From positions 416,001-480,000 of the forward strand of contig CAWHBU010000002.1 in NCBI GenBank assembly GCA_963827685.1: a DNA stretch of 64,000 bases, given 5' to 3'. Positions 12,490-34,413 of this stretch are shown piece by piece. Source of the stretch: an uncultured delta proteobacterium (GTDB lineage Bacteria; Desulfobacterota; BSN033; UBA1163). The first letter of the stretch is position 1. Every line of letters begins with the position of its first letter. Under the pieces are notes generated by a model. That model was not told the DNA's origin, searched no databases, and saw only the letters and a list, made by a program, of their open reading frames with translations. The position numbers and the translations under genes were made by a program.

Positions 12490-12492
12490 GGG

Positions 12493-14858: not shown

Positions 14859-14877
14859 ACAGAATGGGAGGGGTTGG

Positions 14878-15956: not shown

Positions 15957-17309
15957 ATGACCGCAACAATAAGCCAGTCGCTCAATATCCTTATCGTGGA
16001 TGACGAGGTCAACATCCGCAAGACTCTGTCCGTCTGCCTTGAGACCGAAGGTCACAAAGTGATTGCTGTCAGCAACTTTCAGGATGCCTTAGCGGAGGCG
16101 TCACGAAGGTCCTTTGAACTTGCATTCGTAGATCTAAGGCTTGGTACGGAAGATGGACTGGATTTAATCCCTCCTTTGCTGGCAGCAGCGCCATGGCTTA
16201 AGGTTATTGTCATTACAGCCTACGCTTCTATCGATACGGCCGTCGAGGCCATGCGACGCGGGGCAACCGACTACATTCCGAAACCATTCACACCCGCCCA
16301 GGTAAAACTGGCGGTTAACAAGGTATTCGAAATGCGTACGCTGGAGCAAAGAGTTGCAGTTCTACAAGAAGACCTTAAACGGTTAAATCCTGAAGTGGAC
16401 TTTTCAAGTTCCAGTGCTATCATGCAGCGGGCTGTGAATCTGCTGCACCAGGTGGCCTCCACTGAAGCCACCATTCTTTTGCGCGGGGAAAGTGGAACAG
16501 GTAAGACCGTGCTCGCCCGCGCCATCCATTCCTGGAGCAAACGGGCCGACAAGCCTTTTGCCGTCATTTCCTGTCCCTCTCTTTTGCCAGAACTTCTGGA
16601 GAGCGAACTCTTTGGTCATGTAAAAGGGGCTTTTACAGGCGCTGTGCGGGATAATCCTGGCCGCATTGCAACCTGTGAAGGTGGGACCCTTTTACTGGAT
16701 GAGATCGGCGATTTACCGGCAAACCTGCAGCCAAAACTTCTGCGCTTTCTTCAGGACAGGGAGTATGAGAGGGTGGGAGATTATACAACACGAAAAGCGG
16801 ACGTCCGCATCATTGCCAGCACCAACAGGGATCTCGATAGAGCAGTCAAAGAAGGCCAGTTTCGCGAAGACCTCTTTTATCGACTCAATGTGATCCAGAT
16901 CGATATTCCCCCTTTGCGTGAACGGCCGGAGGATGTGACGATCCTTGCTGAGAGGTTATTAGCCTTTTTTGGTCGGGCCGGGCATCATCTCTTTCTCGGT
17001 TTTACCCCGGAGGCGCTTCAAGCCCTCAAACAATACCACTGGCCTGGAAACCTCAGAGAGCTGCGAAACGTTGTTGAACGGGCAGCCATTCTCTGTCAAA
17101 CAGACAAGGTTGGAATCGAATGTCTTCCTGAAAATCTGTTGCCAAGTGATTCAGGCGCGAGACCTGGCGATAGGGTCTCTTTGGAGAAAATCGAGGAGGA
17201 ACATATCCGGCGGGTGTTGGCTACGACAAAATCGCTTCAAGAGGCCGCAGATATACTCGGCATAGATCAGGCGACCCTATGGCGCCGCAGGAAGAAGTAT
17301 GGAATTTGA
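15957..17309 (+). CDS. Sigma-54-dependent response regulator (NtrC family, AlgB-like)
   Basis: REC domain; GESGTGKT, ESELFGH, GAFTGA, LLDEIG, WPGNLREL; C-terminal HTH. Confidence 0.95.
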   Translation: MTATISQSLNILIVDDEVNIRKTLSVCLETEGHKVIAVSNFQDALAEASRRSFELAFVDLRLGTEDGLDLIPPLLAAAPWLKVIVITAYASIDTAVEAMRRGATDYIPKPFTPAQVKLAVNKVFEMRTLEQRVAVLQEDLKRLNPEVDFSSSSAIMQRAVNLLHQVASTEATILLRGESGTGKTVLARAIHSWSKRADKPFAVISCPSLLPELLESELFGHVKGAFTGAVRDNPGRIATCEGGTLLLDEIGDLPANLQPKLLRFLQDREYERVGDYTTRKADVRIIASTNRDLDRAVKEGQFREDLFYRLNVIQIDIPPLRERPEDVTILAERLLAFFGRAGHHLFLGFTPEALQALKQYHWPGNLRELRNVVERAAILCQTDKVGIECLPENLLPSDSGARPGDRVSLEKIEEEHIRRVLATTKSLQEAADILGIDQATLWRRRKKYGI

Positions 17310-17341
17310 TATTAGTGGAAGGAAGGATTCGGTGCTTTGTT
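17229..17341 (+). repeat. R2 copy 1 (native 3' end of the regulator gene plus ~30 bp)
   Basis: Repeated at 27874-27986 and 29984-30094. Confidence 0.95.
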
Positions 17342-17635
17342 CCACCTACAACTAAAGAATTCTCAAAATCATTTGAACTATTGATTTCGATTTGAAAGTG
17401 AGCATAACGCTCAAGGCCAAGAGAAGTGTGAAGGCTCCTTATTGCTCGCATCAATAACATATAAAATTGGTTGCACAAAACTAACTTGAGGCATCGGTAA
17501 CCCTCAATCATTATCTTTTTCAAGGTCTGGCTTCTCTTTAAACCAGTAATCATCAGGTAAATCCTTAACCAATGTTTTAAAGCCAGTGAACGGCTTCATA
17601 TCTTCTTGGAATTTGTTCTGAGGCTTGGGCCCCGA

Positions 17636-18061
17636 TTAATGCCCTGACTGGGTGCCAGCTAGGATTTGGGTAAATACTACATTAGTCTTTCTTGTCTCTC
17701 CGTCTCGAATATACTCAGCATAACATTCCACCCTATGTGAGCCAATGCTAACACCGGGAAGGTACACTTGGAAAGCTCTCTTCGTTCCTAAGGTTAAATA
17801 CGATGCATCCGATACATCAAAACAGTATGGCTCCTGCCCTGATTCATAGATACAGGCTCTTTTAATCTCTGGCTTACCAGCTGCCTCAAAAAAAATATTA
17901 ACCGCAAAGGATGCATTCGCTTGGATACCACTTCCCAGAGCATCTATACTTAATAATCTTACCTCGCCTGAAGCGAGAGGCTCCCTTGGGACCGTAGCAC
18001 AAGAAGAAGCTATCAACAAAACCACTCCACTCAACAAAACAGTTATTAATATAGACCTCAT
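17636..18061 (-). CDS. Hypothetical lipoprotein
   Basis: Signal peptide with lipobox IASSC. Confidence 0.7.
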   Translation of the reverse strand: MRSILITVLLSGVVLLIASSCATVPREPLASGEVRLLSIDALGSGIQANASFAVNIFFEAAGKPEIKRACIYESGQEPYCFDVSDASYLTLGTKRAFQVYLPGVSIGSHRVECYAEYIRDGETRKTNVVFTQILAGTQSGH

Positions 18062-18152
18062 AGAAATAACCTCCTTCCTATTTTTTTATATCGTGTTATA
18101 CAGCAAATGTGACCAATTTCTTTGCCTTGTAAATCTGACAGAAATCTTACTA

Positions 18153-19257
18153 ATACAAACGCATTAAGTAATGTTACATAGCCTACGAATCTTTTGACAA
18201 GACCATGAGCGAGTTGTTTTACAAACGACAGACCAAAGATTATCAAGGTTTTCAAACCAACGGTTGGTGGTGGATTCATAGCGAACACTGCGCCAAATCC
18301 GTTCTTGCACGTTTAATCCCGGTTGATACGGGGGTAAATATTCGATATGGAGCCTCGGATGTTTTTTAAGAAATTGTTCGATGGGATCGCCTCTGTGCCA
18401 GCGGGCCCTGTCGACATAAAGCCAAATGGTATATTCTTTAAACCTTCCATAGAGGTGGCGCAAAAGTTTGAGAAACCCTTCTCTATCCCCCCGTTTTGTC
18501 TGAATCATGCCATAGCGTCCAAGCAAAGGATTGACCCACCCAGAGATATTCAAGCGGATACGATGCTGGCTGGTGGTGGGAATCTTAAGACGCTTTCCTT
18601 TCTTCGCCCAGCCCCGGCTAAGCCTGGGGTGCATCGTAAAGCCTGTCTCATCCTGGAATACAATTGTCTCTTTTGGCCCCAGGGACTCAAGTTTTTTTTA
18701 AAGCCCGCTGGAACTTTCGGGCTTCTTGGCTTTGTGCTTGAAGATAAGAATAACTCGCTCTCTTTAACCGATAACCCAAATGATGCATCCAGCGTTGGGC
18801 TTGCCGCACCTTCAGGTTTATCCCGAAAGACCGCTTCAGATGAATCGCAACCGTTGGCCCATCCCATTGAGTCCGGTTTAAACCAAATTCCCGCGGAGAC
18901 TTCTCTAAGTGTCCCTCCAGCACCCTTTGAATCTTTGTCTCTAACCGTGAAGGCCTTCCCGATCTTGGCTTGGATTTTAAGAACTCTAAGCCGTCTTTGT
19001 TCACCCCGTGAATCCATCGGCTTAAACTCATCCGGGTCAACCCTAACACCTCGGTTATCCATCCCGGACGTTGCCCTTCAAGCACCAGGAGTAAGGCGGC
19101 TATCTTTATGCCTATCCAAGCCCCTGATATTTGTTCGGCTAATGCTAATAAACGCTCTTTATTGGCCTCTTTATGCTCTAAGATTAATGTGGGATTTTTC
19201 ATGCCCACATATTAACATAAATAAACTGCTATGTCACTTTATTTAGGACGTTCGTAT
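18153..19257 (-). mobile_element. IS630-family element (HTH ORF 18687-19208 + DDE ORF ending at 18164, frameshift)
   Basis: TA flanks; imperfect IR ATACAAACGCATTAA / ATACGAACGTCCTAA; A8 slippery run; YVDRARWH and LPPYQPGLNVQERIW motifs. Confidence 0.9.
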
Positions 19258-19410
19258 TAAATAAAGATTAAACGGGCATTAAATTTAGATTAAGATTTCT
19301 TAACTTCGGCAAATAGAATTTTAAGCTTTTGGGAGAGGGCAATTCACAAAGCGAAGGTTGAACCCTTACTCGGTTCCCTTCACACCTCAATTCCTTCGTA
19401 CCGTAGAGAA

Positions 19411-20534
19411 CTAGTATCTAATTATATAAATAAGCGTACTTATTTTTAGGGTGAACTGATTTGACATAACGCTTGGTCCATTCAAACGGGGCTGCCTTTT
19501 CGTTATGGACGGAAATAAACTCATCGATCGCCTGGCGCAACTGTCGGACGCTTGTAAAGGAGGCGCCCCTCAAGGCATAGCGGCTCAGAAGACTGAACCA
19601 GATTTCGATCTGGTTCAGCCAGGAAGCATGTGTGGGCGTAAAATGAAAATGAACCTTCGGATGGCGTTTAATCCAATGATCCCTCTTCGGTCGATGAGTC
19701 TTCAAATTGTCCATAATCACATGGATTTCCTCGTCCGGATGTTCGGCAACGATCTCGTTCATAAAATCCAGAAACTCCCGGCGACGACGGCGGCCGTAAT
19801 GGCCCGCCTTCACTTGTCCCGTGGCCACATTCAAGGCTGCAAAGAGGGTACTCGTTCCATGCCGTCTATACTCATGGTTGGCTCCCGTCAGCGCCTTGCC
19901 ATTGGGCAGTTTAAGCCACCCCTGAGCCCGTTCCAACGCCTGAATGGCTGGCTTCTCATCCATGCATACCACCATGGCGTTCTCAGGAGGATCCAGGTAA
20001 AGCCCAACAATATCAGCGGACTTCCGTGCAAATTCAGGGTCCGTCGAAATACACCAACTGCGCCGTCTCTGAAGGCTAATCCCATACTTGCGCAACACCG
20101 CCCACACTTCATAATCCGGGATGCTCGTCCTCTCCCCCAGAAGCCTTCCGTTCCACTGGGCATATCCCTTCGGAGGAGCTTCATCGATCTTGCGCAGAAT
20201 TGTGTGTTCGGTCTCTGCGGTGTACTTACGTGGCTGCCCGGGGCGCGGTTCATCAAGCAAACCTGCCAACCCTTCTCTGACGAAACGGCTACGCCATTTG
20301 CAAACGCGTGCAACACGAGTCCTCAGCCTTTTGGCAATCTCCGTGTTACTCTGCCCTTCAGCACCCCAGAGAATAATTTGCGCCCTCTCCGCCATACGCT
20401 TGGGAGTGGTATGGGTTCGAACCAATCGATCCAACTCAGCCCGTTGCTCGGGCTCCAACGTGATTTCTTTTGCTTTCCTGCTCATAATACAGGAAAGTTA
20501 GCATATTACGCTTATTATGTCAAGTAGATACTAG
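19411..20534 (-). mobile_element. IS630-family element (transposase 19418-20485)
   Basis: IR CTAGTATCTA...AATAAGCG; CMDEKP, IMDNL and TPTHASWLNQIE motifs. Confidence 0.95.
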
Positions 20535-20604
20535 TCCATCTTATCGATTACTGTTTGAAATGTCGTACTGAGGGAAGATTTACAAGAATCACGCTTTCAA
20601 GAAG

Positions 20605-20766
20605 AAGCTTTTGGGCGGGAGTTTGGTCGGAGGCAATCCCCAGTGGAGGTCTGAGGAGGTTGAAAGACCTTAGGAATGCAGGTAAATATTTTAGATTATT
20701 CTGTGAAGTCCGGAGACCTTTGTAACCCGTACTTATTTAACAAACTTAACTACGACCCCTGGGCAT
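20605..20766 (+). repeat. R1 copy 1 (162-bp att-arm-like repeat)
   Basis: Near-identical to 27706-27867 and 29816-29977. Confidence 0.95.
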
Positions 20767-20866
20767 GCGATTACCAGTTGAAAGAGAGCATGATGCCCCA
20801 ACCTACCCGCCGTTTCTTCTATGGTTTCTTAACCAAGACAAGCAGATATCCCGATTATCGCCTTGC

Positions 20867-22150
20867 CTAAGGTTCCGTCTCATCGGGATCCTCTATAACG
20901 TCGATCCCGACACCCGGTTTAAAAGGGTAAGAAATTACCCGCGAGGTCGCAAAGACATTTTGCTTGCTGGCCTCCAATAGCTTCTTTGCTTCTGCGACTA
21001 CGGCATCAGTTTGAATTAGCCTCGGCCGGACAGCAACGGCAATCTCAGCATGAAGCAAAATCGGGTTTGCGAAGCTGTCCGCATAGACCTTTGCACCAAA
21101 CTCGGCTTTACAGGCACCCGATGCCAGAAGGTACGTAAACGGCTGTACGAGGCGAACTCGATGTGGCTGAAGTGCTTCCCACTCAAAGCTATATTTCCAT
21201 TCGTCACCTTCTTTTGTCAAGCCTTTACCGCTTAACTTTTCAAGCTTACGTTCTATTTCACTGGGTTCACCCATCTGCAGATTTTCAGCGAGGGAATACC
21301 AAGTTACGGCATATTGGGACCTTGCCGAACGTAAAGGATTCGTTTGCGATACCTGAAAAGCACCTGCCGATGCCGTTATTGACATTTCCACGTAGAGGTT
21401 GCGTATTCCAGATGAACTGATGTTCTTAATTGCCAAGATGGCTGGAACTAATCCAGCTTCCATGCGCGCGTCTTGAAGGACTCGCTCAAAATACTGCTTG
21501 AGCTCGCGATCAATTTCAATATCGGGGGCCGACAGTTTAAGCACGTCGACACCTGTTGACAATGAGTTACCCGCAAGCTCGCCTGTTTCCAGAGACACAA
21601 ACTGGAGATCGAGAGGCAGCGGTTGACCTGAATTGTCCACCCTTTGCAGATCACGGATCTTCAATTCCAGTTGGTTTGCAAATTTGTCACGAAAATTAAG
21701 TGAAGAACCGAAGACCTCTACAAGTGCATGCGATGATATTCTCTCCTTGAAAGTTTTTAGCTTTTCCATCTGGTCAAGATCGACATGGCTAGGATCAACT
21801 GGGACATGGGAAAAATACAGCATCACTGGCTTGCCGGCTTTTGCCACTCGTTCGATTTCTTCCAATGTGCCGCTGTCAGCCTCACCGGTTGGCGTACCGA
21901 GCCTGGTCCAGAAAATCCCGACGAGAAGGTCACAATCATCAACTATCCTGCGGTTAACCGCCTCTTGTGGTCGCACGTTATATTCAGGGGCAGCATGGGT
22001 TTCCCACCTGAGAGGAAGAACGACAACGCGGCGATTGTCCGAATGAAGGTTATTCCAGTCTTGCATCACACGGACAGCTGCTTCACGCTCTTCAAGAACG
22101 TCAGAAGGAGATGCGATGAGAATTCGGTACACGCGAGCGTCATAGGACAT
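20867..22150 (-). CDS. DUF4062 (TIR/NDT-like) domain protein
   Basis: ILIASPSDVLEERE...LRWE...CDLLVGIFWTRLGTPT...SGTLEEIE. Confidence 0.82.
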   Translation of the reverse strand: MSYDARVYRILIASPSDVLEEREAAVRVMQDWNNLHSDNRRVVVLPLRWETHAAPEYNVRPQEAVNRRIVDDCDLLVGIFWTRLGTPTGEADSGTLEEIERVAKAGKPVMLYFSHVPVDPSHVDLDQMEKLKTFKERISSHALVEVFGSSLNFRDKFANQLELKIRDLQRVDNSGQPLPLDLQFVSLETGELAGNSLSTGVDVLKLSAPDIEIDRELKQYFERVLQDARMEAGLVPAILAIKNISSSGIRNLYVEMSITASAGAFQVSQTNPLRSARSQYAVTWYSLAENLQMGEPSEIERKLEKLSGKGLTKEGDEWKYSFEWEALQPHRVRLVQPFTYLLASGACKAEFGAKVYADSFANPILLHAEIAVAVRPRLIQTDAVVAEAKKLLEASKQNVFATSRVISYPFKPGVGIDVIEDPDETEP

Positions 22151-22627
22151 TAGGGAATCTCACTCTACACCAGAGGTCCACACCGCTAATCGCGCCTCGA
22201 ATATTTTCTAAACCATTGAGGCTTTTCTGCTCAAAAAGGTCTGAATTAGATAAAATTCATCCAGCAAGAAAAGATCGTTTAGCACTATAAAACACAGAAT
22301 TGAGATAATTGGAACAAATTATCGTCGGAATCGGAGCATACCCCATTGCTACTTTTCGTTTATAATATACACCTTTTTCAAAAAATAGCAAAGCGAAAAC
22401 TTCATGAAGAACTTCTCTTTTCTCCTAAATCTTGCCGGCCTCAATCCCGTTTTAACGCTTCCCTACAAATCTTCAGTCTAAGATGACTCTGAGGATCGAC
22501 AATTACTGGTAGAAACATGCACAAAAAAAGGCAGGACTATTTCTAACCCTGCCTTTGCTCTTTGACCACTGAATATTGACTTACTTCCCTCGATGATGGC
22601 GTGCTTAGTCCAAGCCTCCATCCCCTC

Positions 22628-23212
22628 CTACCGGTATTTTCTGCGTTGGATTTCACTCCGAATCCTACTCCTCTCCCGCCCATCAGAGACATAGAGGGAG
22701 GGTGGGACATTCCATCCCAATCCCCGATGCTGTCTGATGATTGAATGAAAATTTTTTAGGCCAACCTTCCGCCCTATCGTGTGGATCCGGAGTCGTTTCA
22801 TAAAATAGATCGCATAAGCCTTCTCTGCTCTCTTTGAGCGGAGTCTTCCAAATTTCTGACTGACCAATCCCCGGTTTCTCAGCGTTCGGAAATGGTAAAA
22901 GTATTTTGCTCTTGATCCCCCCGTTTCCTTTTTGATCGTGTGGGAAGAAATAAATTCGCTGTGGGGTTTCTTGCTGATCTGGATCAGCTTCTGACAAAAA
23001 CGACATCCCTCCGTTTGATGCCCTCTGGGTTTCAATGGTCTCTTGATCCCCTGCCTTTTAGAAAAGGCATAAACCGCCTGCCTCGACACTCCATACCTTT
23101 TCCCCAGTTTCTCGAAGGGAAGAGTAGTCCTTTTCAAGTCCCTTAGCAAATCGTCTTCCTTACCCCGAAGTATTCCCCATCTTCTCATTATCATCTTAGG
23201 AACTTTCAGCAA
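22628..23212 (-). CDS. Basic hypothetical protein with HTH
   Basis: FEKLGKRYGVSRQAVY HTH, CxxC, K/R-rich. Confidence 0.6.
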   Translation of the reverse strand: MLKVPKMIMRRWGILRGKEDDLLRDLKRTTLPFEKLGKRYGVSRQAVYAFSKRQGIKRPLKPRGHQTEGCRFCQKLIQISKKPHSEFISSHTIKKETGGSRAKYFYHFRTLRNRGLVSQKFGRLRSKRAEKAYAIYFMKRLRIHTIGRKVGLKNFHSIIRQHRGLGWNVPPSLYVSDGRERSRIRSEIQRRKYR

Positions 23213-23410
23213 AATTTTAATTCTTCCATTCCAATCTATTCAATCAGAAACGAGGTGTCAATGAGAATTGGGAGGAGGGTTTAGTCGTCCTTGAATTTTT
23301 GCTAAGCACGGAGTATCTATGAAAAAGAGAGTGCGGGGATGAACTTCGGCCTGCAAATTGAAGACCACTGTTATAAATTGTGATAAAATTAGCTCAAAAG
23401 GACTGGAAAG

Positions 23411-23590
23411 ATGAAGGTATGGGAATACCTTTTAGATTTTTCGGCAAGGATACTTGCTCCGAATTTTCTAAAAATTGGCCTCATCGTTGTTGTTATATGG
23501 CTTCTAATTTCAGGTCTTAGAAAGGGGTTAAGAAAGGCGAGTCGGAATAACGATTCTGAGGAAAATAACGAAGATAACAATAGGGACTAA
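23411..23590 (+). CDS. Small single-TM protein
   Basis: Hand translation, 59 aa: MKVWEYLL...IGLIVVVIWLLISGLRK... Confidence 0.45.
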   Translation: MKVWEYLLDFSARILAPNFLKIGLIVVVIWLLISGLRKGLRKASRNNDSEENNEDNNRD

Positions 23591-23685
23591 TTTAGATTTT
23601 TGAATCCTCTTTTAAGAAGTCACTGGGGAGCATCTTCTCAATAGGATTGTGGGTTGGTAGTTCAAATCCCTCCGTGGGCTGTGAA

Positions 23686-23832
23686 TTATCCCGAAAGAAT
23701 ATTCAAAAACTTTTTAAACTTAATCATATCCTCTGGAGAGATATCAATAAATTTTACTCCACACCGATAATCTCCCCAGCTTTCACCCAAATGAATCTCT
23801 GTCCAACCTACCTCGGCCAGCACTTCAACGAA
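23686..23832 (-). pseudogene. PilZ-domain C-terminal fragment
   Basis: Hand translation FVEVLAEVGWTEIHLGESWGDYRCGVKFIDISPEDMIKFKKFL; EVxW...GVKF pattern; no N-terminal half. Confidence 0.6.
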
Positions 23833-23848
23833 ATTCGACCATATCCTC

Positions 23849-24280
23849 TCAGGGTGGCCAAATGAGAGAAGCGCTGAGACAGTCGCCTTGCTCGTGAAAA
23901 ACTCTTTCCCCCAGAGTCAAGGTTATTCCGACCTCAGAGCAGCATTCGATCGTCCGGGTCCGCTCTTTTGCCAACTTTTCGTTCCAGGAGTAAACACCCG
24001 CTGTATAATATTCTTCAGTCCCGCGGTCGGTACGCACCGAAAATCGGGAGAAGCGCCAAGGTACTCCAAAACGGATTGAAACCGGCCGGTGGGTGACGGA
24101 GTGAATGAATTCAATCCGGCCCTCCTGCCAGGCCCAGAACCAGAATGTATTGGAGCTGCGATTTCCGGCGATTCGGACCGGCCGGACGAATCCCGCCACG
24201 AAAAGGACTGGAATCAGGATAACCGCAAGGGACAAAGTTCTTGTGGAAACCCATTTGCCTTCTGGGGCAAGGTCAATCAC
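23849..24280 (-). CDS. DUF1850-like TRAP-TAXI accessory protein
   Basis: FIHSV motif, N-terminal TM, coupled to the TAXI gene. Confidence 0.65.
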   Translation of the reverse strand: MIDLAPEGKWVSTRTLSLAVILIPVLFVAGFVRPVRIAGNRSSNTFWFWAWQEGRIEFIHSVTHRPVSIRFGVPWRFSRFSVRTDRGTEEYYTAGVYSWNEKLAKERTRTIECCSEVGITLTLGERVFHEQGDCLSASLIWPP

Positions 24281-25272
24281 TTCAACGTGCCTGTTTCCTT
24301 AAAGTAGCGTAACGAACCCGGGTCGTAAGGAATGATTCCATGAATGAACTTTACCGCATTCGCAGGAGTGGTGTCCTTGGCCGCTTTGGCCGAAGCCTGC
24401 AGTTGCGCCAGATGTTCGAAGACTGCCTTGGTGATGGAGTAAGAATATTTCTCGGGCAAATCCTTTGGTCCCACGAAGAGGTTCCAGAAGGCCAGTGTCG
24501 GGTTGTCCCTGTCGGTCTTGTAGACTTCCTTGGGGATCACGCCCGCTTCCAGCACTCCGGGGAATTTCTGGAGAAGTTTTTTTACCAGGTCTGACGGTAT
24601 GTCCACCAATTCTATCTTACTCCCCTTGCGAGCCAAAGAGGTGGCAAGCTCGGTCACCGAGGCAGTAGGGAGGCCCCCGGACCAGAAATAAGCGTCCAGA
24701 GTTCCTTGTGACATCGCTTCCGACAATTCAGAGGCTCCCAAACGTTCTTGCTTGCCTAAATCGGAAGTCTTCAGCCCGGCCGCATCCAGCACCATAAAGG
24801 CCTCTACCTCGGTGCCCGACCCTGGGGCCCCGGTAGAGACACGCTTTCCCTTCAAGTCGGCTACGGTTTTAATACTTGATCCAGACACGGCCACGAGATG
24901 TAGGTAGTTGGGATACATGGCCCACATGATTCTGATTTCTTTAGCGGGTTTATCTTTGAAGCGATCAAGTTTTCCGGTATATGCAAGGTAAGCCGAATCG
25001 GGAAGGACCGTCCCGAGATAGTAGGTATTCTTGGCCGGGATCGTCCGCCGTTGAATCAGGAGAAGATTGTCCACCGATGCCGCAGTCTGGATGGCGGTTG
25101 CTTCTACTCCAGCGTACTTCGTCAGGATTTCGGCGACTGTCGTCCCGTAGTAATAGTAAACTCCGCCAATGCCACCGGTAGTAACCAAAATCCTGGGTTT
25201 CTCCTCCGCGGCGACGACCAGGGTAGCCAGTCCAAAAATCATTGCCAAAACGATACATGTGATTTTCTTCAT
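24277..25272 (-). CDS. TAXI-family TRAP solute-binding protein
   Basis: Signal peptide; TGGIGGVYY, ASVDN, DLKGKRVSTGAPGSGT. Confidence 0.93.
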   Translation of the reverse strand: MKKITCIVLAMIFGLATLVVAAEEKPRILVTTGGIGGVYYYYGTTVAEILTKYAGVEATAIQTAASVDNLLLIQRRTIPAKNTYYLGTVLPDSAYLAYTGKLDRFKDKPAKEIRIMWAMYPNYLHLVAVSGSSIKTVADLKGKRVSTGAPGSGTEVEAFMVLDAAGLKTSDLGKQERLGASELSEAMSQGTLDAYFWSGGLPTASVTELATSLARKGSKIELVDIPSDLVKKLLQKFPGVLEAGVIPKEVYKTDRDNPTLAFWNLFVGPKDLPEKYSYSITKAVFEHLAQLQASAKAAKDTTPANAVKFIHGIIPYDPGSLRYFKETGTLK

Positions 25273-25360
25273 TCCAACCTCCTCTCACGTTTTGAAAATC
25301 GGGTTAAAGGTGCTTTCCTCAGAAGGTGTCAAGAAATCGCATGCCTTACAGAATGATTCT

Positions 25361-27466
25361 CTATTCGGCAGCGCTGACAGCTTCGGATTTCTTACCCAGG
25401 AAGAACCAGATCGAAACAAGCAAAACTGCCATGTTGACCCAAAGATAAGGTGCAAATAGACCAATAGAAATGATTCCGAGGACCCAACATTCCCATGGGC
25501 GCAACGGCCGCCGTGCATAACCCACCGTGGCTGCTGCCATACAGATCGCGCCCGCCGACACGATTGCCAGGCGAAGGATGAAGCCGGTGATCGCGTCGAA
25601 ACCCGAAGCAGTCCGCCACATTGGCAACAGGAGAAGGGCCGTGCCCCGGTAAGCCAGGATGAAGGAAAAGCCCACGAGATACTTGGGCAAGGCCACAATG
25701 GCCGCATGCCAACCTGTCTTTAACGGGTTCGTTAAAAAAACCGAAGCCGAGGCATACGCGGAGAGGGCCACGGGCGGGGTCACATCGGCCAGAATCGAAT
25801 AATACATCAGGAACATATGTGTGGACAGCAGGGCCGCTTCGGGAGGGATGCCGTTAGCGATGGCTATTTGCACGATGCCCGGGGCCGTCAGGGACGAAGC
25901 CACCACGTATGTCGCCGTTGGCGGAATCCCCATTCCCAGGAGCAAACTTAACACCGCCGCTAAAAAGGTGGCAATAAACAGGCTCTGTCCGGAAACCAAT
26001 GCCATGAACTGGGAAAATTTGTTCGGAAGACCGGTCATGACCATTAAGGTCAGGATCAAGTTGGCACAGACCACGGCTGTGCCGATGGGGATCAAGGTTG
26101 AGAAACCATCAGCCAGCCCTTTCAGGAGCACACGCGGGCTCACTGGACGAAGCGTGGGGTCCAGGTAGCAAAAAATGACGAAGAGAACCACGGCAGAAGC
26201 TACGGCCATGCTGATCGAGTAGCCCAGATAGATGAAGACCACAATTAAAAGGATGGGGACGAAAATGTAGCAGTACCGGCGAAAATACCGCCCACCATAG
26301 CTTTTTTCATTCTCGATGGGCTTCAGCCCGATCTTCTTAACATAAAAATAGTTGTAAGCCATGATGGCCACGAGATAGAGAAACATCGGTCCCAAGGCCA
26401 TGATGCAAACCCATAAATAAGGGATGGAAAGTATCTCCACCATGACAAAGGCCATGGAGCCCAAAACGGGTGGGGTGATCATGGCTATGGTGCCTGCAGT
26501 GGCGGCTATTCCGGAGGCGACATAGCGATCATATCCTGCCTTTTCGAACATGGGCTTGCTGATAGTCGATACGAACTGGGTGTCCGCCGCGCCGGAACCG
26601 CTGAACATGCCCATGAAAACGGAAGCCAGACACGTGACTATGCCTGGGCTGTCGGCCCGCCCGCGGGCGGCCATTGAGGCGATGTTGGCGATTATCCGGC
26701 CCAAATTCAAGACGCTAATCATACCCCCCAAGATGGTGAAGTAGACGAGATACTTCATGGACACGCCGGTAATGAGTCCGAACAGCCCGGCCTCGGTCTC
26801 GCTGAAAAGTTTTCCCAGCAACAGGTCAAAGCCGAAAGAAGGGTGTGAAAAGACGCCCGAGAGCATATCTCCATACAGGTTGTAAAGAAGGAAAATAAGA
26901 ACCAGAGACGGCAGGATGGCTCCGGTATAACGGTAAACCTGGCCGAGCAAGAGAAGAGTGAGCCCGAAACCCATGACGAGGTCCCAAGGTTCCGGTATCA
27001 TGGCCCGCTCAATGATGTCTTGGAAAAAGATCACCAAATAAAGAAAAGCCACGGTGGCGAGGATAGCCCCGACTTTATTCAGCCACGGGCCCGAGCGGGG
27101 ATAAACGGCCGGCAGGACTGCCACCAGCCAAAAAATGGTGGCCACAACATTGAATTGCAGGTTCAACCCCAGCTGCCAGAAGGCATAGAGCGGAAATGCA
27201 GCCAAAATTGCGAAGACAAAAGAACCGACTCCCGCTCGCCTATCGACTCGGATCGAGGATAGAAGGTATCCTGTCAGGAGAAGGAAAAACACGTGAGTCG
27301 CCCTCTGTACCTGGGTGAGGTCCAGGATGGAAATGGATAGTTTTGAGAGCGGCGTGTAAGGGTGAACCACTAAGTACAAGCTGTAGAGGCTGGCGATGAT
27401 CAGGAGCGGGGTGATGATAAAACGTCTGAGGATGCTATCTTGGGTACTCTGGGGTTCTGCGTGCAT
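25361..27466 (-). CDS. TRAP transporter 4TM/12TM fused permease
   Basis: Polytopic; SGSGAAD, ITPPVLG, LGMGIP, ADVTPPVALSAY. Confidence 0.92.
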   Translation of the reverse strand: MHAEPQSTQDSILRRFIITPLLIIASLYSLYLVVHPYTPLSKLSISILDLTQVQRATHVFFLLLTGYLLSSIRVDRRAGVGSFVFAILAAFPLYAFWQLGLNLQFNVVATIFWLVAVLPAVYPRSGPWLNKVGAILATVAFLYLVIFFQDIIERAMIPEPWDLVMGFGLTLLLLGQVYRYTGAILPSLVLIFLLYNLYGDMLSGVFSHPSFGFDLLLGKLFSETEAGLFGLITGVSMKYLVYFTILGGMISVLNLGRIIANIASMAARGRADSPGIVTCLASVFMGMFSGSGAADTQFVSTISKPMFEKAGYDRYVASGIAATAGTIAMITPPVLGSMAFVMVEILSIPYLWVCIMALGPMFLYLVAIMAYNYFYVKKIGLKPIENEKSYGGRYFRRYCYIFVPILLIVVFIYLGYSISMAVASAVVLFVIFCYLDPTLRPVSPRVLLKGLADGFSTLIPIGTAVVCANLILTLMVMTGLPNKFSQFMALVSGQSLFIATFLAAVLSLLLGMGIPPTATYVVASSLTAPGIVQIAIANGIPPEAALLSTHMFLMYYSILADVTPPVALSAYASASVFLTNPLKTGWHAAIVALPKYLVGFSFILAYRGTALLLLPMWRTASGFDAITGFILRLAIVSAGAICMAAATVGYARRPLRPWECWVLGIISIGLFAPYLWVNMAVLLVSIWFFLGKKSEAVSAAE

Positions 27467-27705
27467 ATTCAGTCTTATTTCTTTATCCAGGAATTAAATT
27501 CTACGAGACCTGGCTTCTTACCTATTTATCCCCCGCCACCCGCCACAATCTGAGGGTGAACTAAATATACGAAAGAACGAAGTTGAATGTCAAGAAGGAA
27601 GACAACAAGATATGAAGGAAGGTTTTAGGCCAGTATTGCAGATAACGATTACCAAATGAAAACTTGCATCATGGGCGAAATCTGTCAGCCGACGACTACA
27701 GGAAA

Positions 27706-27986
27706 AAGCTTTTGGGCGGGAGTTTGGTCGGAGGCAATCCCCAATGGAGGTCTGAGGAGGTTAAAAGACCTTAGGTTTGCAGTTAAATATTTTAGATTAT
27801 TCTGTGAAGTCCAGAGACCTTTGCAACCCGTACTTATTTAACAAACTTAACTACGCCCCCTGGGCATTAACCGAAATCGCTGCAAGAGGCCGCAGATATA
27901 CTCGGCATAGATCAGGCGACCCTATGGCGCCGCAGGAAGAAGTACGGGATTTGATATGAGTGGAAGGAAGGATTCGGTGCTTTGTT
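27706..27986 (+). repeat. R1 copy 2 + R2 copy 2
   Basis: R1 at 27706-27867, 6-bp linker TAACCG, R2 at 27874-27986. Confidence 0.95.
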
Positions 27987-28196
27987 ACGGTAGAAATAGC
28001 ATATACTAATTAAATGTATAAAGATCACATCACAACTTTTTGAAACTGCATACCCATAAGAGAAAAACACAAAATATTTTGCAGGAGTCTCTATTGAAAA
28101 CGAATCAACCCTTTTGAAATTTGTCCCGCCGGGGGGAAGTTCAGCCAATTCTTCAGAAGGCTAATTTGTTAGGTGGGTTATCATTTCCGGGTAGAT

Positions 28197-29624
28197 CTAT
28201 GAATTATTCTCCTTTGAGTGGTGACTCAATCGCGCAAGCTTCCCACGAACGGAATCAACGTACTCTTTAAGCCTATAGACCTCTCCAAAAAAAGTAAGGG
28301 GCACGCGAATTCGATGGATCGAAGCTTCGATCTGATCAAGTCTTCCCTGATATTCCAATACCCTTTCTGGCTCCGGATTTTTCATTGCATCCGATTCGAG
28401 ATTCTTTAGTTCTCCAAACCAGCGGTAGAATTTGCGGCGGTTCCGCCAGGAGTATAGCCAGGGTATGCCTCGCATTAGAGGAATCAAGACGATGGCCACC
28501 GGCACCAGGATCAAAATCAGGCGGTCAACTAAAACCGCCACCCCAAAAGGAAGGTAATCGAGCAAAAAAGGGCGGCCTTTCTTATAAAATCTCTCCGCAG
28601 AGGTGGACAACGGAAAATCCAGTTCCTTAGGCGAGGGGAATTCTCCTCTCTTATTCAACCAGCCGGCCCTGCTGTGAATCTCCATAGCCGCGTCCAAAAG
28701 CAGATACTGGAGAGCCGGATGCAGATTCTGGCGTACAATCAAACTTGTTGTCGTGGCGACAAGATGAATATCCTGGGGCGGTACTTTCTCCGACAGATTC
28801 AGTATTCCTTCAGGCAAAATGATATGCGACAAGGCTGGAAAAAGCCGGGTATAGGCCTCGGCATGTTTGAAACTCATCAACTTTATTTTTTCGGCGTACA
28901 GAAGTTCCCGAACGAGCGCATTGTCCTCTGTTCCGATTATCATGACTACATCCAGGGTCCCTTCGAGGAGGGCCTTATTGGCGGCGGCGCTGGGAATATC
29001 CAGCAGCAAGGTGGGAGGTTTGGCTGCACCGCTTGCCTTCAGCAAATCCAAGGAAAACTTCCGCGCCCCGCTGCCCTCTGGCCCGATGGCAATCTTCTTT
29101 CCTATAAGCCTCGAAAGGTCATCCCATGTCTCTTGGCTCCGATAAAAAACCCAGAGGGGCGAGTAGCATATTGCCCCGAGGGAAACGAGATTTTTCGTCT
29201 CGGAGGGGGAGCTTGTCCCATCCTGCACAAAACCAGCATCCACTCGCAAGGACGTATCTCCAAGACGCTTGAGGTTTTCCACCGAACCTGACGAGGGGAG
29301 TAGCTCAAGACGGACCTTTTCCCGCGCCAGGATTTTTTTGTACCGCTCACCAAAATTTGCGTAAGTCCCTCGTTCGAACCCAGTGCTCATGGTCAAAGTA
29401 TCCGGAGGTGTCAAATGATAGGCTATGACGATGGAGATGAGGGCGGTTAACAGTACCGAGGCAATAACCACCAGAAGCCTGCGATTTCGTATACCAGGAA
29501 TGAATTTTCGTCCCATTTTCGGTTCTTTGGGCATGTTACACTCCCATGCAGGCAAAGCTTTTGTCGCCGAGTAGTGATAGTGATAAAAACTTGCTTCGGG
29601 ATAGGTTGAACATACAAAAAACAA
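28197..29624 (-). CDS. TAXI-like binding protein with N- and C-terminal TM helices
   Basis: SSGSVEN, GFVQDG, KKIAIGPEGSG; true start probably later (MPKE/MGRK). Confidence 0.85.
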   Translation of the reverse strand: MFFVCSTYPEASFYHYHYSATKALPAWECNMPKEPKMGRKFIPGIRNRRLLVVIASVLLTALISIVIAYHLTPPDTLTMSTGFERGTYANFGERYKKILAREKVRLELLPSSGSVENLKRLGDTSLRVDAGFVQDGTSSPSETKNLVSLGAICYSPLWVFYRSQETWDDLSRLIGKKIAIGPEGSGARKFSLDLLKASGAAKPPTLLLDIPSAAANKALLEGTLDVVMIIGTEDNALVRELLYAEKIKLMSFKHAEAYTRLFPALSHIILPEGILNLSEKVPPQDIHLVATTTSLIVRQNLHPALQYLLLDAAMEIHSRAGWLNKRGEFPSPKELDFPLSTSAERFYKKGRPFLLDYLPFGVAVLVDRLILILVPVAIVLIPLMRGIPWLYSWRNRRKFYRWFGELKNLESDAMKNPEPERVLEYQGRLDQIEASIHRIRVPLTFFGEVYRLKEYVDSVRGKLARLSHHSKENNS

Positions 29625-29815
29625 AGGAGTAGGTCAAGAAAAATCACCAGAAAAATCACCACAAGATATGGGAGTGTCCTCCTTATCCGTTTGAGACCCA
29701 ACCCACCAATAAAAAAGTGAGGGAGGACTTTGGAGGGTCAAGAAAATAACACTGATGATTACCAATTCACATCGAGCATGCTTGGCCAAAGTGTCGGGTT
29801 GTTGACCTCAGTAAT

Positions 29816-30094
29816 AAGTTTTTGGGCGGGAGTTTGGTCGGAGGCAATCCCCAAGGGAGGTCTATCGAGGTTAAAAGACCTTAGGAATGCAGTTAAATAT
29901 TTTGAATTATTTTGTGAAGTCCAGAGACCTTTGTAACCCGTACTTATTTAACAAACTTAACTACGTCCCTTGGGCATTAACCAAAATCGCTTCAAGAGGC
30001 CGCAGATATACTCGGCATAGATCAGGCGACCCTATGGCGCCGCAGGGAGAAGTACGGGATTTGATATTAGTGGAAGGAAGGATTCGGTGCTTTG
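29816..30094 (+). repeat. R1 copy 3 + R2 copy 3
   Basis: R1 at 29816-29977, linker TAACCA, R2 at 29984-30094. Confidence 0.95.
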
Positions 30095-30157
30095 GTACGC
30101 CTACAAGTCATTGCTGGGAACCGTATTCAAGGATCGAAGATTACGGGATGAAAGAGA

Positions 30158-30235
30158 GGCTAACGTTCGCGTTCAGTGGCGGGAGCCAGTGGGCGAAGCC
30201 CCCTGGTGACCGTCCACTACAACGCGGGGTTAGCC
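30158..30235 (-). other. Integron attC site
   Basis: Minus strand GGCTAAC-CCCGCGTTGTAGTGGAC...CACTGAACGCGAAC-GTTAGCC, an imperfect palindrome starting 1 nt after the stop codon. Confidence 0.88.
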
Positions 30236-30236
30236 G

Positions 30237-31064
30237 TCATTTCGCAAGTGTGGTTATGAGTCTTCCGCCTGGGCTTAGGACCCGGAAGTCCTCGATGACT
30301 TCATCGTCATTGCTCGCAATGGCACCGGCAAGAGAACCGAGGATGACGTACGCCATGTCATGCACGGAGTGCTCGGCGCGCTCAAGCACGCGGGCAGTAG
30401 GACTTGTCGGTACGTTGCACTGGTACCGTTCGAAGATGCGAAGAGCGGCGAGCAATTGGCATTGAACCCACCTGAACCACGCCCAATCGGGACTGATTTC
30501 CGCAGGCATCGGCGCCTTTGGTGGAAGATCTTCTCGTAAGAAGGATGCATACACAGTGCGGACAACCTCGGGATTCGTGGCGACCCTGGTCCGGGCTGCT
30601 GCAACCGCAGCAGGAAAGTCTCGGAACTCGATTCCGATCAACTCCGGGAAAAACGCATGGACCGACTGGCAACGCCGGAGAAACGACTGCGCGTCTTGGT
30701 AGACCTGGTTGCGCCATGACTGGAGGGTTTCGAGAATCTCACCTCCGGCTATGTAGGTTCCGTTGCGCAGCTTCGGATTGAAGATGTACGAACCCTGGAT
30801 GACGTGCCGTTCAAGCGGACCGCATGGGGATTGGTTCTCGATCTCTGTACGCAGTAAGGTGCCTACGTTCGGGAGAAGCGCGAATGAGCCTGGGCGACTT
30901 GGCAGCTTCGAAAAGCACCGCACTTGGCTCTTCGGGCTCGCGGTCATGAGCTCGTAGAACAGATTCTGGGAAACCATGACTGAGTGGTCTCGACACAGCG
31001 CGGTGATCAACTCTGATGGCGCGCCATCGAGGTAGCTCTTATCGAGTATAAGCGCGGCGGACAC
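30237..31064 (-). CDS. Cassette-borne PIN-like domain protein
   Basis: LILDKSYL, FYELM and HDMAYV...ASND acidic pattern; GTG start just inside the GTTAGCC cassette boundary (31074-31080). Confidence 0.6.
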   Translation of the reverse strand: MSAALILDKSYLDGAPSELITALCRDHSVMVSQNLFYELMTASPKSQVRCFSKLPSRPGSFALLPNVGTLLRTEIENQSPCGPLERHVIQGSYIFNPKLRNGTYIAGGEILETLQSWRNQVYQDAQSFLRRCQSVHAFFPELIGIEFRDFPAAVAAARTRVATNPEVVRTVYASFLREDLPPKAPMPAEISPDWAWFRWVQCQLLAALRIFERYQCNVPTSPTARVLERAEHSVHDMAYVILGSLAGAIASNDDEVIEDFRVLSPGGRLITTLAK

Positions 31065-31162
31065 GCTGGTGGCGGCTAACTTATTTTTTATGCTGCTTCC
31101 ACATTTTCGTAAGTCTTGAACCAATAAAGGCTCTCTTCTACTCAAAACCGCATGCCAGGACA

Positions 31163-32495: not shown

Positions 32496-32520
32496 ATTTC
32501 AATTGTCACTTTGCAGTAGT

Positions 32521-32549
32521 AATATACATTTTTTTTGAAATCTTTGGAA
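32521..32549 (-). promoter_or_regulatory. Sigma-70 promoter of the GT51-NTase pair
   Basis: TTCCAA-17-TATATT. Confidence 0.55.
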
Positions 32550-32593
32550 GTGTGGACTTCAGAAACAAGGAAACAAAAAAAGGCAGAGCTTTT

Positions 32594-33034: not shown

Positions 33035-33050
33035 TGTTGATCCTCCTGTA

Positions 33051-33110
33051 GCTCTAACACAAAAATCAGCCGAGAGTGTAACGAGTCAGCTGGATTGATT
33101 TGATTAAGAG
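33051..33110 (-). other. Degenerate short attC site
   Basis: TCTTAA(T)C-AAATC-AATCCAGCTGAC...GGCTGATTTTTGT-GTTAGAG; hairpin with an extrahelical base; overlaps the stop codon. Confidence 0.75.
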
Positions 33111-33481: not shown

Positions 33482-33535
33482 TTGTGGCCTCCTTTTTCTC
33501 AGAAAGCTCGTAACATTTATTTTTTAGTTGGTTAT

Positions 33536-34399: not shown

Positions 34400-34413
34400 G
34401 GCATGGAGTTTGC
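34400..34413 (+). promoter_or_regulatory. Sigma-54 promoter of the kinase-kdp cluster
   Basis: GGCATGGAGTTTGC (GG-N10-GC), with TTGCAA-containing motifs at 34222-34234 and 34253-34265. Confidence 0.7.

Follow-up and report, generated by a model that had tools for sequence, protein, structure and literature searches.

Repeats and cargo modules behind a response-regulator gene

In the window (the whole stretch of DNA analysed, 64,000 nucleotides), an intact gene for a sigma-54-dependent response regulator and a downstream histidine-kinase (HK) gene enclose an array of cargo modules punctuated by recurring sequences (Table 1). The source organism is an uncultured, sulfate-reducer-type bacterium. 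One repeat, R2, consists of the final 83 nt of the regulator gene, stop codon included, together with 42 nt downstream, and its three copies are 90-95% identical to one another. The other, R1 (~178 bp), also occurs three times, with 88.5-92.5% identity over 174 aligned columns, and contains the direct repeats TTGGGCGGGA / TTGGTCGGA, GGAGGT twice at 10-bp spacing and an A/T block. R1 copies B and C end in GGGCAT, followed by TAACC(G/A) and then R2; copy A abuts other sequence, GCGATTACC, leading directly onto M3 without an R2. Repeat alignment bears out the original prediction as to the three copies of each repeat and the two TAACCR joints, and the paired repeats, GGAGGT pair and A/T block that it described in R1 are all present. 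The R2 copies displaced from the regulator show decay, including one stop codon and several missense changes, and CACCTAC, exact in the regulator-proximal R2, has mismatches in the distal ones.

Every cargo gene in the array is antisense to the regulator. The array comprises at least five recombinase-less modules, probably seven, whose cargo includes a lipoprotein-like ORF with two insertion sequences (IS), a DUF4062 protein, a TAXI protein with a fused TRAP permease, a second TAXI-like protein and a six-ORF set with a transglycosylase. A Pfam scan of the array's ORFs found no recombinase genes in these modules. The modules are unrelated and integrase-less, as had been proposed; the proposed 'integron cassettes' at 30.2-34 kb are not supported, no attC-like sites being visible there by eye.

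Table 1. Features of the array and its flanks, in window coordinates
Feature	Position	Strand	Content or basis
NtrC-type sigma-54-dependent response-regulator gene, intact, 450 aa; its 3′ end anchors the array	15957..17309	+	Pfam Response_reg, Sigma54_activat, AAA_lid_14, HTH_8
R2, regulator-proximal copy ('ext' of the array)	17227..17351	+	exact CACCTAC at 17343-17349
Left-end trailer x and M motif	17352..17402	+	M1 = 17383-17402, GATTTCGATTTGAAAGTGAG
Module 1	17403..20545	-	lipoprotein-like ORF 17636-18061; basis of the module includes inverted repeats I1 and depth
Module 1, multi-copy IS-like stretch with DDE_3 fragment	about 18150-19260		
Module 1, IS630-type element	19410-20535		
Right-end site A	20546..20775	+	M2 (20546), R1A (20593-20775), direct M3 (20769-20788)
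Module 2a	20789..22340	-	DUF4062 protein 20867-22150
Core-less linker	22340..22520	+	M2-type arm, TTCATGAAGAAC, 50-nt spacer, CCCTACAAATC, x, M (22501); by eye against G010 sequences
Module 2b	22521..27646	-	ORFs 22628-23212 and 23849-24280, no Pfam match
Module 2b, transport genes	24277-25272; 25361-27466	-	TAXI binding protein; fused TRAP permease
Right-end site B	27647..27871	+	M4 (27647), R1B (27694-27871), long form of conserved core
R2 copy B	27872..27996	+	followed by degenerate CACCTAC and x-M5 (about 28026-28050)
Module 3	28051..29756	-	TAXI-like protein 28197-29624
Right-end site C	29757..29981	+	M6 (29757), R1C (29804-29981)
R2 copy C and trailer	29982..30158	+	R2 (29982-30106), CGCCTACAAGTC at 30098, x, M7 (30139-30158)
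Module 4	30159..34085	-	six ORFs, among them transglycosylase 31782-32495; probable internal boundary near 32562-32594 (a run X2 contig joins 32562 to a box1-like site)
Far end of array	34086..34134	+	M8, y, TTCAGGAAGAA, degenerate remnant; G010 homology back at 34135
Conserved flank	34135..36413	+	enhancer-like inverted repeat 34219-34237; sigma-54 promoter-like GGCATGGAGTTTGCT 34400-34414
Histidine-kinase gene	34599-36413	+

The genome is a metagenome-assembled genome (MAG) with 7.98% estimated contamination, and the repeats are 300 bp long, which could favor an assembly chimera of strain alleles. The contig carrying the window is 1.28 Mb long, however, and independent short-read contigs from public runs bridge repeat-to-cargo junctions (17238-17767, 29372-29849 and 30038-31107). 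Because the same architecture recurs in a sister genome assembled in 2 contigs (G010), we give an artefact of this kind almost no credence.

The regulator-HK spacer is an insertion hotspot

Orthologues of the regulator share 97% (G010), 92% (G009) and 91% (G011) amino acid identity with it. In two relatives the regulator and HK genes are separated by only 220 bp (G008) and 155 bp (G038), representing an empty or near-empty site, and in others the gap is filled with unrelated DNA: 8.3 kb in G019, 16.8 kb in the window genome (G000) and 25.4 kb in G010. These relatives show that the two genes formerly lay 155-220 bp apart. The flanks of the G010 locus are 92-94% identical to those of the window at the nucleotide level, and the two genomes have no cargo in common; the G010 array nevertheless displays the same architecture, with three full R1-R2 linkers and four copies of R2, and a scan of 21 of its ORFs found no recombinase. 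The spacer is an insertion hotspot with cargo turnover, in agreement with the original prediction. We found no transfer, replication or phage genes in the cargo of the window, of G010 or of the metagenome loci.

R1 belongs to a dispersed family built on a 79-bp core

R1 represents a longer version of a conserved core of 79 bp, expanded by an insert of ~95 bp. The core is a dispersed family, specific neither to this locus nor to R2: about 13 copies lie at 5 loci of the window genome, fused elsewhere to other flank-derived sequences, yet joined to R2 here twice. Across all loci examined (this genome's arrays, four congeners and 69 metagenome contigs) we counted 142 core sites. Of 55 genomes searched from the order, 9 contain box1 with up to one mismatch (reversed-pattern controls, 0), and 92 metagenome stretches contain an exact 26-base match. 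The 114 distinct core copies align with sharp edges and unrelated flanks, most of the 79 columns reaching a conservation of at least 0.8. Copies of box1/box2 in inverted orientation are absent save across one IS3-mediated inversion, and IS3 copies cluster beside the sites. A REP/RAYT or MITE identity was rejected, given this lack of inverted copies and the weak folds.

Around the core, linkers of about 350 bp follow a common order on the + strand: an M arm (consensus GATTAC-N4-TGAAA), 67 nt, the core, terminating in CCCCTGGG(C)A, a segment we call ext, CACCTAC, about 30 nt and a second M arm. With up to 2 mismatches, the M arm is found 5′ of box1 at 38/91 sites, at a fixed spacing of 67 nt from the core, and 3′ of the core end at 36/91. 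CACCTAC is exact at only 18/116 sites; on the 3′ side of the core, up to 330 nt away, TTCACCTAC occurs with at most one mismatch at 32/116, compared with 8 and 5 for two controls. The ext segment is an array-specific copy of native flank: in the window it is R2, and in the C4 / G010:C2 array it copies native C4:745250-745157. An MBL-fold cassette common to G009 and G010 loses homology at the core end and not at CACCTAC; the site goes along with its downstream gene.

Sites lie upstream of the next gene, at a median of 251 bp from its start, and the nearest ORF runs antisense to the site in 85 of 99 cases on the M side and, on the other side, in 95 of 104. A position upstream of genes is what would be expected if core and M arms were a shared promoter, insulator or regulatory leader and the arrays ordinary variable regions; by eye, M also resembles the enhancer-like repeats before the HK gene, and promoter-like hexamers occur between M and some genes. 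Promoter-like matches show no excess over shuffled sequences, however (21 versus 19.5), and the core has no RNA structure, covariation or Rfam match. A leader would also leave unaccounted for the duplicated regulator 3′ ends and the persistence of linkers in a sister genome with wholly different cargo, and we regard this explanation as distinctly improbable.

The core end stays constant, but the native position joined to it varies (17227 in G000 and G010, 17062 in G005; for the C4 origin, C4:745250 versus about 745222). One-ended, rolling-circle-like capture, in which mobilisation would start from a precise nick or origin-type end at the edge of the core and continue through the module and beyond its far end into the flank, would explain an ext of this form. 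The linker ends are asymmetric and without terminal inverted repeats, and a short palindrome, GTCCC-CT-GGGAC, sits at the extreme end of the core, both in keeping with such capture. Against it, IS91-type Y2 transposases (PF04986) number 0 in G000 and G010 and occur among 5 genomes only in G004 and G009; the abundant IS200-like element has unrelated ends; just 2/69 contigs have Y1 transposase genes close to a site; and single-stranded DNA folds are unremarkable. This route seems to us improbable.

attC sites of integrons are imperfect palindromes that fold as single-stranded DNA, with R''/R' boxes (RYYYAAC ... GTTRRRY) and crossover in R', and Cury et al. (2016) reportedly named attC-site clusters without integrases CALINs. 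Were the array a remnant of this kind, its co-oriented, mostly single- or few-gene cassettes would be expected, and the genome does hold a truncated intI elsewhere (C3:782919-783275, a 141-aa C-terminal fragment) as well as RYYYAAC-like heptamers seen by eye in box2. Yet folding of the short form, the long form and ext type c gives z values of only -1.5 to +0.7 relative to shuffles, GTTRRRY is missing at the junction, the linkers are about 350 bp long, the site moves with the downstream gene, and no intact intI exceeds the TIGR02249 cut-off. A classical integron remnant is thus very improbable.

A mobile element with two Xer-like recombinases targets the linker

No recombinase was found at junctions in the 69 metagenome contigs (0/112 ORFs scanned), and in the five genome arrays none was found except within an inserted 2.17-kb element; the search suggested originally, for R1 copies beside an integrase, otherwise gave none at these loci. 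The element (2172 bp; 3 copies in the window genome, 99.8-100% identical) encodes two Xer-like tyrosine recombinases and ends in 11-bp inverted repeats, each touching GTAGGTG. It targets CACCTAC specifically: all 9 copies read (3 in G000, 4 in G010, 2 in G002) are inserted in the CACCTAC of a linker, with an M arm within about 60 nt, by eye, in at least 7 of the 9. The recombinase footprint accordingly falls at the R2/x boundary instead of the R1-R2 joint, to which the original prediction had pointed.

Because the element sits exactly in the linker CACCTAC, its Xer-like pair is a candidate trans-acting enzyme for the cassettes, of the kind that the earlier idea of an integrase acting in trans would require. 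Among 15 genomes of the genus, 5 have the recombinase (E ≤ 1e-60); box1 sites occur in four of these and R1-like copies, detected by BLAST, in the fifth, G011. The recombinase was not found in site-bearing G005, G009 and G012, which are draft MAGs of about 300-420 contigs. The element lies outside the window, its nearest copy 221 kb away, shares neither arms nor cargo with the modules, and may be only a parasite of the site.

Proposed growth of the array

We favor a reading, to which we assign roughly an even chance of being right, in which a cassette array (window 17,352 to about 34,135) has grown in the short spacer separating the regulator gene from its HK operon by serial entry via ext/CACCTAC, with the enzyme acting in trans. 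The linker would be the joint of a circularised module. Crossovers within the linker's ext/CACCTAC portion would bring modules in beside the regulator one at a time, every new entry pushing the previous R2 copy rightwards. The Xer-like pair of the 2.17-kb element would be the best candidate for the enzyme. Recombination at CACCTAC alone does not account for ext copies beside the core end, nor for the joining of that end to varied native positions. The break of the MBL-fold cassette at the core end, the scatter of homology break points, and the limited share of sites with CACCTAC or an M arm also count against this reading. The assembled contigs of public runs contained no circular joint, including the circular junctions anticipated originally, and no excision scar or single-module presence/absence polymorphism; no circular contig occurs among the 69 from metagenomes.

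Homologous recombination by itself is unlikely to be the whole explanation, though it is a serious contender. Linkers would then be portable homology, with modules exchanged by RecA after DNA uptake; the 125-bp R2 would allow Campbell-style integration of circles or fragments, and the Xer-like element and IS3 copies would merely parasitise repeated sequence, much as IS1111-attC elements parasitise attC. Homology ends at scattered positions in the linkers of different loci, with only small peaks at the core end, ext end and M, and ext and the native site share 65-125 bp of identity. R1-R2 copies are equally diverged within and between genomes (83-92%), and the clustering of IS3 and the lack of a recombinase in cis would likewise fit. 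Homology does not predict, however, a sharp-edged core conserved at 0.9 or more in most columns over 114 copies with unrelated flanks, co-oriented cargo or the fixed spacing of the M arm.

Relation to known systems

CIMEs, as described for the ICESt1/ICESt3 model (PMC5704250), no longer have integration genes but retain att sites. They accumulate in tandem behind a target gene, a repeat of whose 3′ end borders each of them, and depend for mobility on a recombinase from elsewhere. The modules here are similarly flanked by direct repeats of the target 3′ end (three R2 copies in the window, four in G010). Unlike CIMEs, no module in more than 80 loci carries an integrative element or resembles a decayed one, the modules are of 1-7 kb with one or few genes, the same site family occupies several chromosomal loci, and the 125-bp target repeat lies between two separate boundaries.

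Many Dehalococcoides ssrA islands (PMC3146451) occur in tandem, bounded by a 3′-end direct repeat (20 bp) of the tmRNA gene and a short conserved motif; 16 carry a serine-recombinase (dsiB) module, and some, devoid of an integration module, were suggested to be mobilisable in cis. Our array likewise consists of tandem units behind one gene, bounded by its 3′-end repeat, but the target is a protein gene, the modules are without recombinase and the candidate enzyme, an Xer-like tyrosine pair, is encoded by a separate element of 2.17 kb.

Like integrons and CALINs, the arrays combine co-oriented recombinase-less cassettes, a conserved recombination site between them, site-specialised insertion sequences and cargo rich in defence, toxin-antitoxin and unknown genes. 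In contrast to integrons, the site is not a folded attC but a composite one that precedes its gene, IntI is absent, and arrays bear copies of their own native flank. IMEX and Acinetobacter pdif modules are integrase-less segments in tandem at one site, moved by an Xer-type tyrosine pair encoded elsewhere, namely host XerC/XerD, at dif-like 28-bp sites. Tandem integrase-less segments and a candidate Xer-type pair encoded elsewhere are shared features, but here a mobile element encodes the pair, and the core is a 7-mer next to which the element has 11-bp inverted repeats. A dif-motif search of the genome gave nothing convincing, every match having at least 7 mismatches; a GTTTG...CAAAC dyad was noted, by eye only, at the box1/box2 centre.

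We regard the locus as tandem accretion of recombinase-less cassettes in a new form, and the array looks like a little-known gene-capture route. More tentatively, and with doubt prevailing, we propose an integron-independent mode of gene capture in Thermodesulfobacteriota that would use two M arms, the 79-bp core and a CACCTAC crossover, a mobile Xer-like pair, and ext as an address label. Lying between core and crossover, ext would direct and repair insertion at a given chromosomal site. If this is true, one cassette pool could seed arrays at several loci, even inside the end of a protein-coding gene.

Variable cargo behind the regulator gene

Both repeats described in the original prediction are present in the sequence, the three copies of R2 being 90–95% identical (table). 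R2 consists of the final 83 nt, including the stop codon, of the regulator gene, which encodes an intact sigma-54 response regulator of 450 aa, plus 42 nt downstream. The C-terminal peptide of the regulator can still be read from the displaced R2 copies; those of the source genome (G000) and its sister species (G010) have, between them, one stop codon and several missense changes, which fits discarded gene ends. R1, a repeat of ~178 bp, ends in copies B and C with GGGCAT, followed by TAACC(G/A)AAATCGC running into R2. Copy A is followed by a different sequence.

In two relatives, G008 and G038, the histidine-kinase gene directly follows the regulator, and within the gap (220 and 155 bp, respectively) are an enhancer-like inverted repeat and a promoter of sigma-54 type. 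The regulator-to-kinase distance is 8.3 kb in G019, where the insert is a Pst/PhoU/PhoR/PhoB cluster, 16.8 kb in the window and 25.4 kb in G010. We found no recombinase gene in any of these three inserts. The G010 flanks are 92–94% identical to those of the window and its array contains three full R1-R2 linkers, the joints between cargo packets, with no cargo segment in common with the window. The locus is thus an insertion hotspot, as predicted, in which linkers persist around variable cargo. No tRNA or tmRNA gene was found in the 15–36 kb interval of the window.

The alternative of a chimeric assembly can be discounted because the window lies on a 1.28-Mb contig, the two-contig G010 assembly has the same architecture, and several repeat-to-cargo junctions are bridged by contigs assembled from short reads of other runs.

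Ahead of the kinase operon, the window retains an enhancer-like inverted repeat (TTGCAATTTTCAAGG) and a sigma-54-type promoter (GGCATGGAGTTTGCT), both kept in G008, G019 and G010. The array has moved the regulator 17 kb from the operon that is probably under its control. A second indel adjoins the regulator gene just upstream: 3.4 kb encoding an amino-acid permease, Usp, TrkA-N and TrkA, missing in G010 and present in G009, G011 and G002.

Composite linkers with parts in fixed order

Read on the regulator strand, a full linker comprises an M motif (GATTAC-N4-TGAAA); TTCAGGAAGGAG; the core, with terminal CCCCTGGG(A/C)(C/A); an array-specific stretch, ext; the CACCTAC motif, (T)TCACCTAC(AAGTC); x, of ~30 nt; and a second M. 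M (≤2 mismatches) stands at a fixed 67 nt from box1, a conserved block of the core, at 38 of 91 sites (core copies) versus 4 in the control. Core-less linkers also occur (M, y, TTCAGGAAG, short spacer, CACCTAC, x, M), one of which divides the second interval of the original prediction into two modules. A contig from sequencing run X2 joins position 32562 to a box1-like site, which suggests an additional boundary within the last interval.

The ext is a copy of each array's native flank. It is R2 in the window and G010 arrays; in the C4/G010:C2 array it copies a native origin sequence beside DUF72 and hisI/hisG, with two alternative start positions. G005 has a long-form R1 joined instead to 49 nt from within the regulator gene. 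Thus the core end is constant, and its junction with native-derived DNA is variable in position. By eye, no motif or consensus was found at the native break points 17227, 17062, C4:745250 and about 745222.

Two sequences near linkers belong to other dispersed families. The stretch from R1 copy B to the TRAP gene, which includes M4, has relatives (81–93%) at C2:1088471, C3:732583, on C7 and at four places on C8. An ext of type 'c', beside two C4 sites, is a member of another family, which forms clusters at C1:260-265 kb, C5:58-70 kb and C4:505-519 kb and is also present after a site in a different genus (G044); there may be further arrays with other linkers.

Coordinates of array features and associated elements (bare numbers refer to the window)
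Feature	Location	Remark
Indel upstream of regulator	12488-15872	
Regulator gene	15957-17309	
R2 copies	17227-17351; 27872-27996; 29982-30106	
Regulator-gene stretch equivalent to G005 fusion	17062-17110	
Regulator-proximal CACCTAC	17343	exact
R1 copies A, B, C	20593-20775; 27694-27871; 29804-29981	
Core-less linker	22340-22520	
Dispersed-repeat stretch with M4	27600-27700	
Core site, example	27853-27833	minus strand
Enhancer-like inverted repeat	34219-34237	
Sigma-54-type promoter	34400-34414	
Histidine-kinase gene	34599	start
R1-related loci, G000	C4:283 kb; C4:726-741 kb; C3:1004-1010 kb; C2:1196-1201 kb	
Native origin of C4/G010:C2 ext	C4:745250-745157	
Ext type 'c' beside two sites	G000:C4:726196-726310; 729051-729165	
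IS3-family copies	G010:C2:1034-1060 kb (L128, L129); G000:C4:740938-742094	
Y1 transposase fused to DnaA-type HTH	L187:49-1089; L189:1256-2242	≤1.2 kb from far end of two arrays
IS200-type tnpA, example	G000:C4:636157-636519	
Truncated integron integrase	G000:C3:782919-783275	

A conserved core shared by several arrays

BLAST and pattern searches recovered R1-related copies at four further G000 loci (table), and the exact 26-base version of box1 occurs in 92 metagenome stretches. R1 is therefore not tied to this locus; the original interpretation is supported in part, namely as to a hotspot filled with recombinase-less modules. In the alignment, a short form of the site has box1 (GGGCGGGAGTTTGGTCGG) and box2 (CTTAYTTAACAAACTTAAC) separated by 13 nt, and R1 is its long form, with ~95 extra bases between the boxes. 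Of 55 genomes of the order, 9 contain box1 (≤1 mismatch), nearly all of them members of the source genus, and reversed-pattern controls gave no hit. Aligning 114 distinct short-form copies defines a 79-bp block with sharp edges on both sides and most columns at least 0.9 conserved. The core had no match in IMG/VR viral contigs or PLSDB plasmids.

The core block folds as ssDNA no better than shuffled sequence, RNAalifold gives −4.6 kcal/mol with no covariation across the 114 copies, and Rfam searches (E up to 1) returned nothing in the 15–36 kb interval and only chance-level matches at the C4 array origin. These results argue that the core is neither an attC hairpin, a reading that failed this structural test, nor a structured RNA. 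Most simply, it would be a double-stranded protein-binding site. Promoter readings of M and core (sigma-54 or sigma-70) were rejected, as the fit was poor by eye and a scan did not exceed shuffles, and a search of the genome for dif-like sites gave no match with fewer than seven mismatches. By eye, the first 25 nt of the core in the cargo-gene direction (…GTAGTTAAGTTTGTTAARTAAG…) contain stops in three frames, which could block read-through out of the preceding cassette. A core 14-mer matched no paper in the literature collection searched; queries on recombinase-less cassette arrays gave, among the matches listed, only integron, MITE and defence-hotspot papers.

Cargo of the arrays

Sites recur every 1–5 kb between unrelated genes at G010:C2:1038-1060 kb, on G000:C4 and on contigs of G004, G009 and G012. 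In a survey of 142 sites, 85 of 99 nearest ORFs on one side, and 95 of 104 on the other, were encoded on the strand opposite to that of the site, and the site stood a median of 251 bp upstream of the next gene. Among the cargo are defence genes (GmrSD, Shedu, TIR, restriction-modification), PIN-TPR proteins, a reverse transcriptase, toxin-antitoxin genes, transporters, methyltransferases and regulators. We scanned with Pfam 112 of the 213 ORFs of ≥100 aa from 69 metagenome contigs (those ≥204 aa, duplicates dropped) and none encoded a tyrosine or serine recombinase. Site-bearing contigs have no recurrent family of recombinase-like proteins, and their sole clean protein cluster of five is a conserved deacetylase flank; four 316-aa array ORFs considered as a common protein are not homologous. 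The arrays are integron-like in behaviour, without integron parts.

Six IS3-family copies (105-aa and 286-aa ORFs) in the G010 array, and one in G000, lie 120–300 bp from cassette sites, in what looks like site targeting by analogy with insertion sequences on attC; in the G010 array, an inverted block is flanked by two copies in inverted orientation. Y1-transposase/DnaA-HTH genes lie near two arrays, their proteins 41% identical; with relatives in G000 that are not located near sites, they were rejected as the array enzyme. The C4 array origin has a perfect DnaA-box-like TTATCCACA 40 nt away, a putative link to these genes. An IS200-like element (545 bp with hairpin ends, six copies aligned) is very active in G000, which has 21 near-identical copies of its tnpA gene, and was discarded as the source of the site since its ends are unrelated to it.

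A Xer-like recombinase element inserts within linkers

The sole integrase genes near any G000 site lie in a 2172-bp element present in three copies (99.8–100% identity). It carries genes for a 387-aa and a 297-aa tyrosine recombinase, both Xer-like, which match XerC, XerD and XerA models, all below cut-offs. Perfect inverted repeats of 11 bp form its ends, and each has GTAGGTG (complement of CACCTAC) next to it. In all nine copies whose flanks were read by eye (three in G000, four in G010, two in G002), the element sits exactly within CACCTAC. AAGTC-type sequence follows, and an M motif lies within ~60 nt in at least seven of the nine. The insertion point is the ext/x boundary of the linker; by eye, the opposite side carries ext-type sequence in the G000:C4 copy and an M-y-TTCAGGAAG arm in the C2 copy and one G010 copy. 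Like the hotspot and the linker anatomy, this choice of target is directly observed. More broadly, 32 of 116 sites have TTCACCTAC (≤1 mismatch) no more than 330 nt 3′ of the core, versus 8 and 5 in two controls.

At E ≤ 1e-60, the 297-aa protein is found in 5 of 15 genomes of the genus, four with box1 sites and the fifth with R1-like copies by BLAST; it has no match in G005, G009 or G012, draft genomes with sites. As relatives are not independent, this co-occurrence is weak evidence.

A possible route of module entry

We infer that modules move as circles, that they enter in a given order, and that the enzyme responsible is this pair, not RecA or some other enzyme. Each linker would be the joint of a circularised module, with CACCTAC as the crossover core for the Xer-like pair supplied in trans. 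A circle (core, ext, CACCTAC, x, M) would recombine at CACCTAC just behind the regulator or, alternatively, enter through homology anywhere along the 125-bp R2. Entry would place cargo beside the regulator, and the previous R2 copy, with the modules already present, would come to lie nearer the kinase gene. Circle entry would account for the tandem R2 copies and their decay with distance, for an R1/R2 junction that is identical in every one of the five full linkers in the two species, for co-orientation, and for linkers that persist while all cargo is replaced. Of the CACCTAC copies in the window, the regulator-proximal one is exact and the distal ones have mismatches. No excision or circle joint was seen in contigs of four sequencing runs, whose uncovered parts are uninformative, and none of the 69 metagenome contigs is circular.

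Circle entry does not account for the boundary at the core end or for the native flank between there and CACCTAC. In one shared cassette, homology breaks at the core end. Break points are in general scattered, which counts for the main rival, movement of modules by homologous recombination between linkers. Given both observations, this rival and a one-ended, nick-initiated capture are less likely but viable beside circle entry; the latter capture lacks its enzyme, an IS91-type transposase being absent from G000 and G010.

We class the array as a variant of tandem accretion of recombinase-less cassettes, and consider it rather doubtful that it represents a separate, independent way of capturing genes comparable to the integron.

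Relation to known systems

Among described systems, the nearest are cis-mobilisable elements and tandem accretion at ICE/IME att sites (PMC5704250), and the tandem ssrA islands of Dehalococcoides, some of which have no integration module (PMC3146451). Unlike either, the window array is anchored at the end of a protein-coding gene, with a 125-bp target repeat and a composite linker of ~350 bp. Here, too, one site family serves several chromosomal arrays, no module resembles a decayed autonomous element, and the candidate enzyme is a mobile Xer-like pair. The genome contains no intact IntI. A truncated integron integrase retains in frame only its C-terminal 141 aa, including the IntI-specific insertion, and no attC-like repeat array was seen within 15 kb on either side.

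To our knowledge, no well-understood platform other than the integron stacks single promoter-poor genes without a recombinase for each. If the proposed route is correct, these arrays would form a second such platform, based on a different site and a pair of Xer-like enzymes. The system is directly testable, as two recombinases and a ~350-bp linker are enough for a plasmid assay, and it would provide a concrete sequence signature by which arrays of this kind could be recognised in metagenomes. The 125-bp repeat of the end of a protein gene shows that an array can be anchored in coding sequence with the gene left intact. Such a system would help explain the turnover of accessory genes, including those for defence (GmrSD, Shedu, TIR, restriction-modification), transporters and regulators, in slow-growing anaerobes of peat, wetland and sediment.
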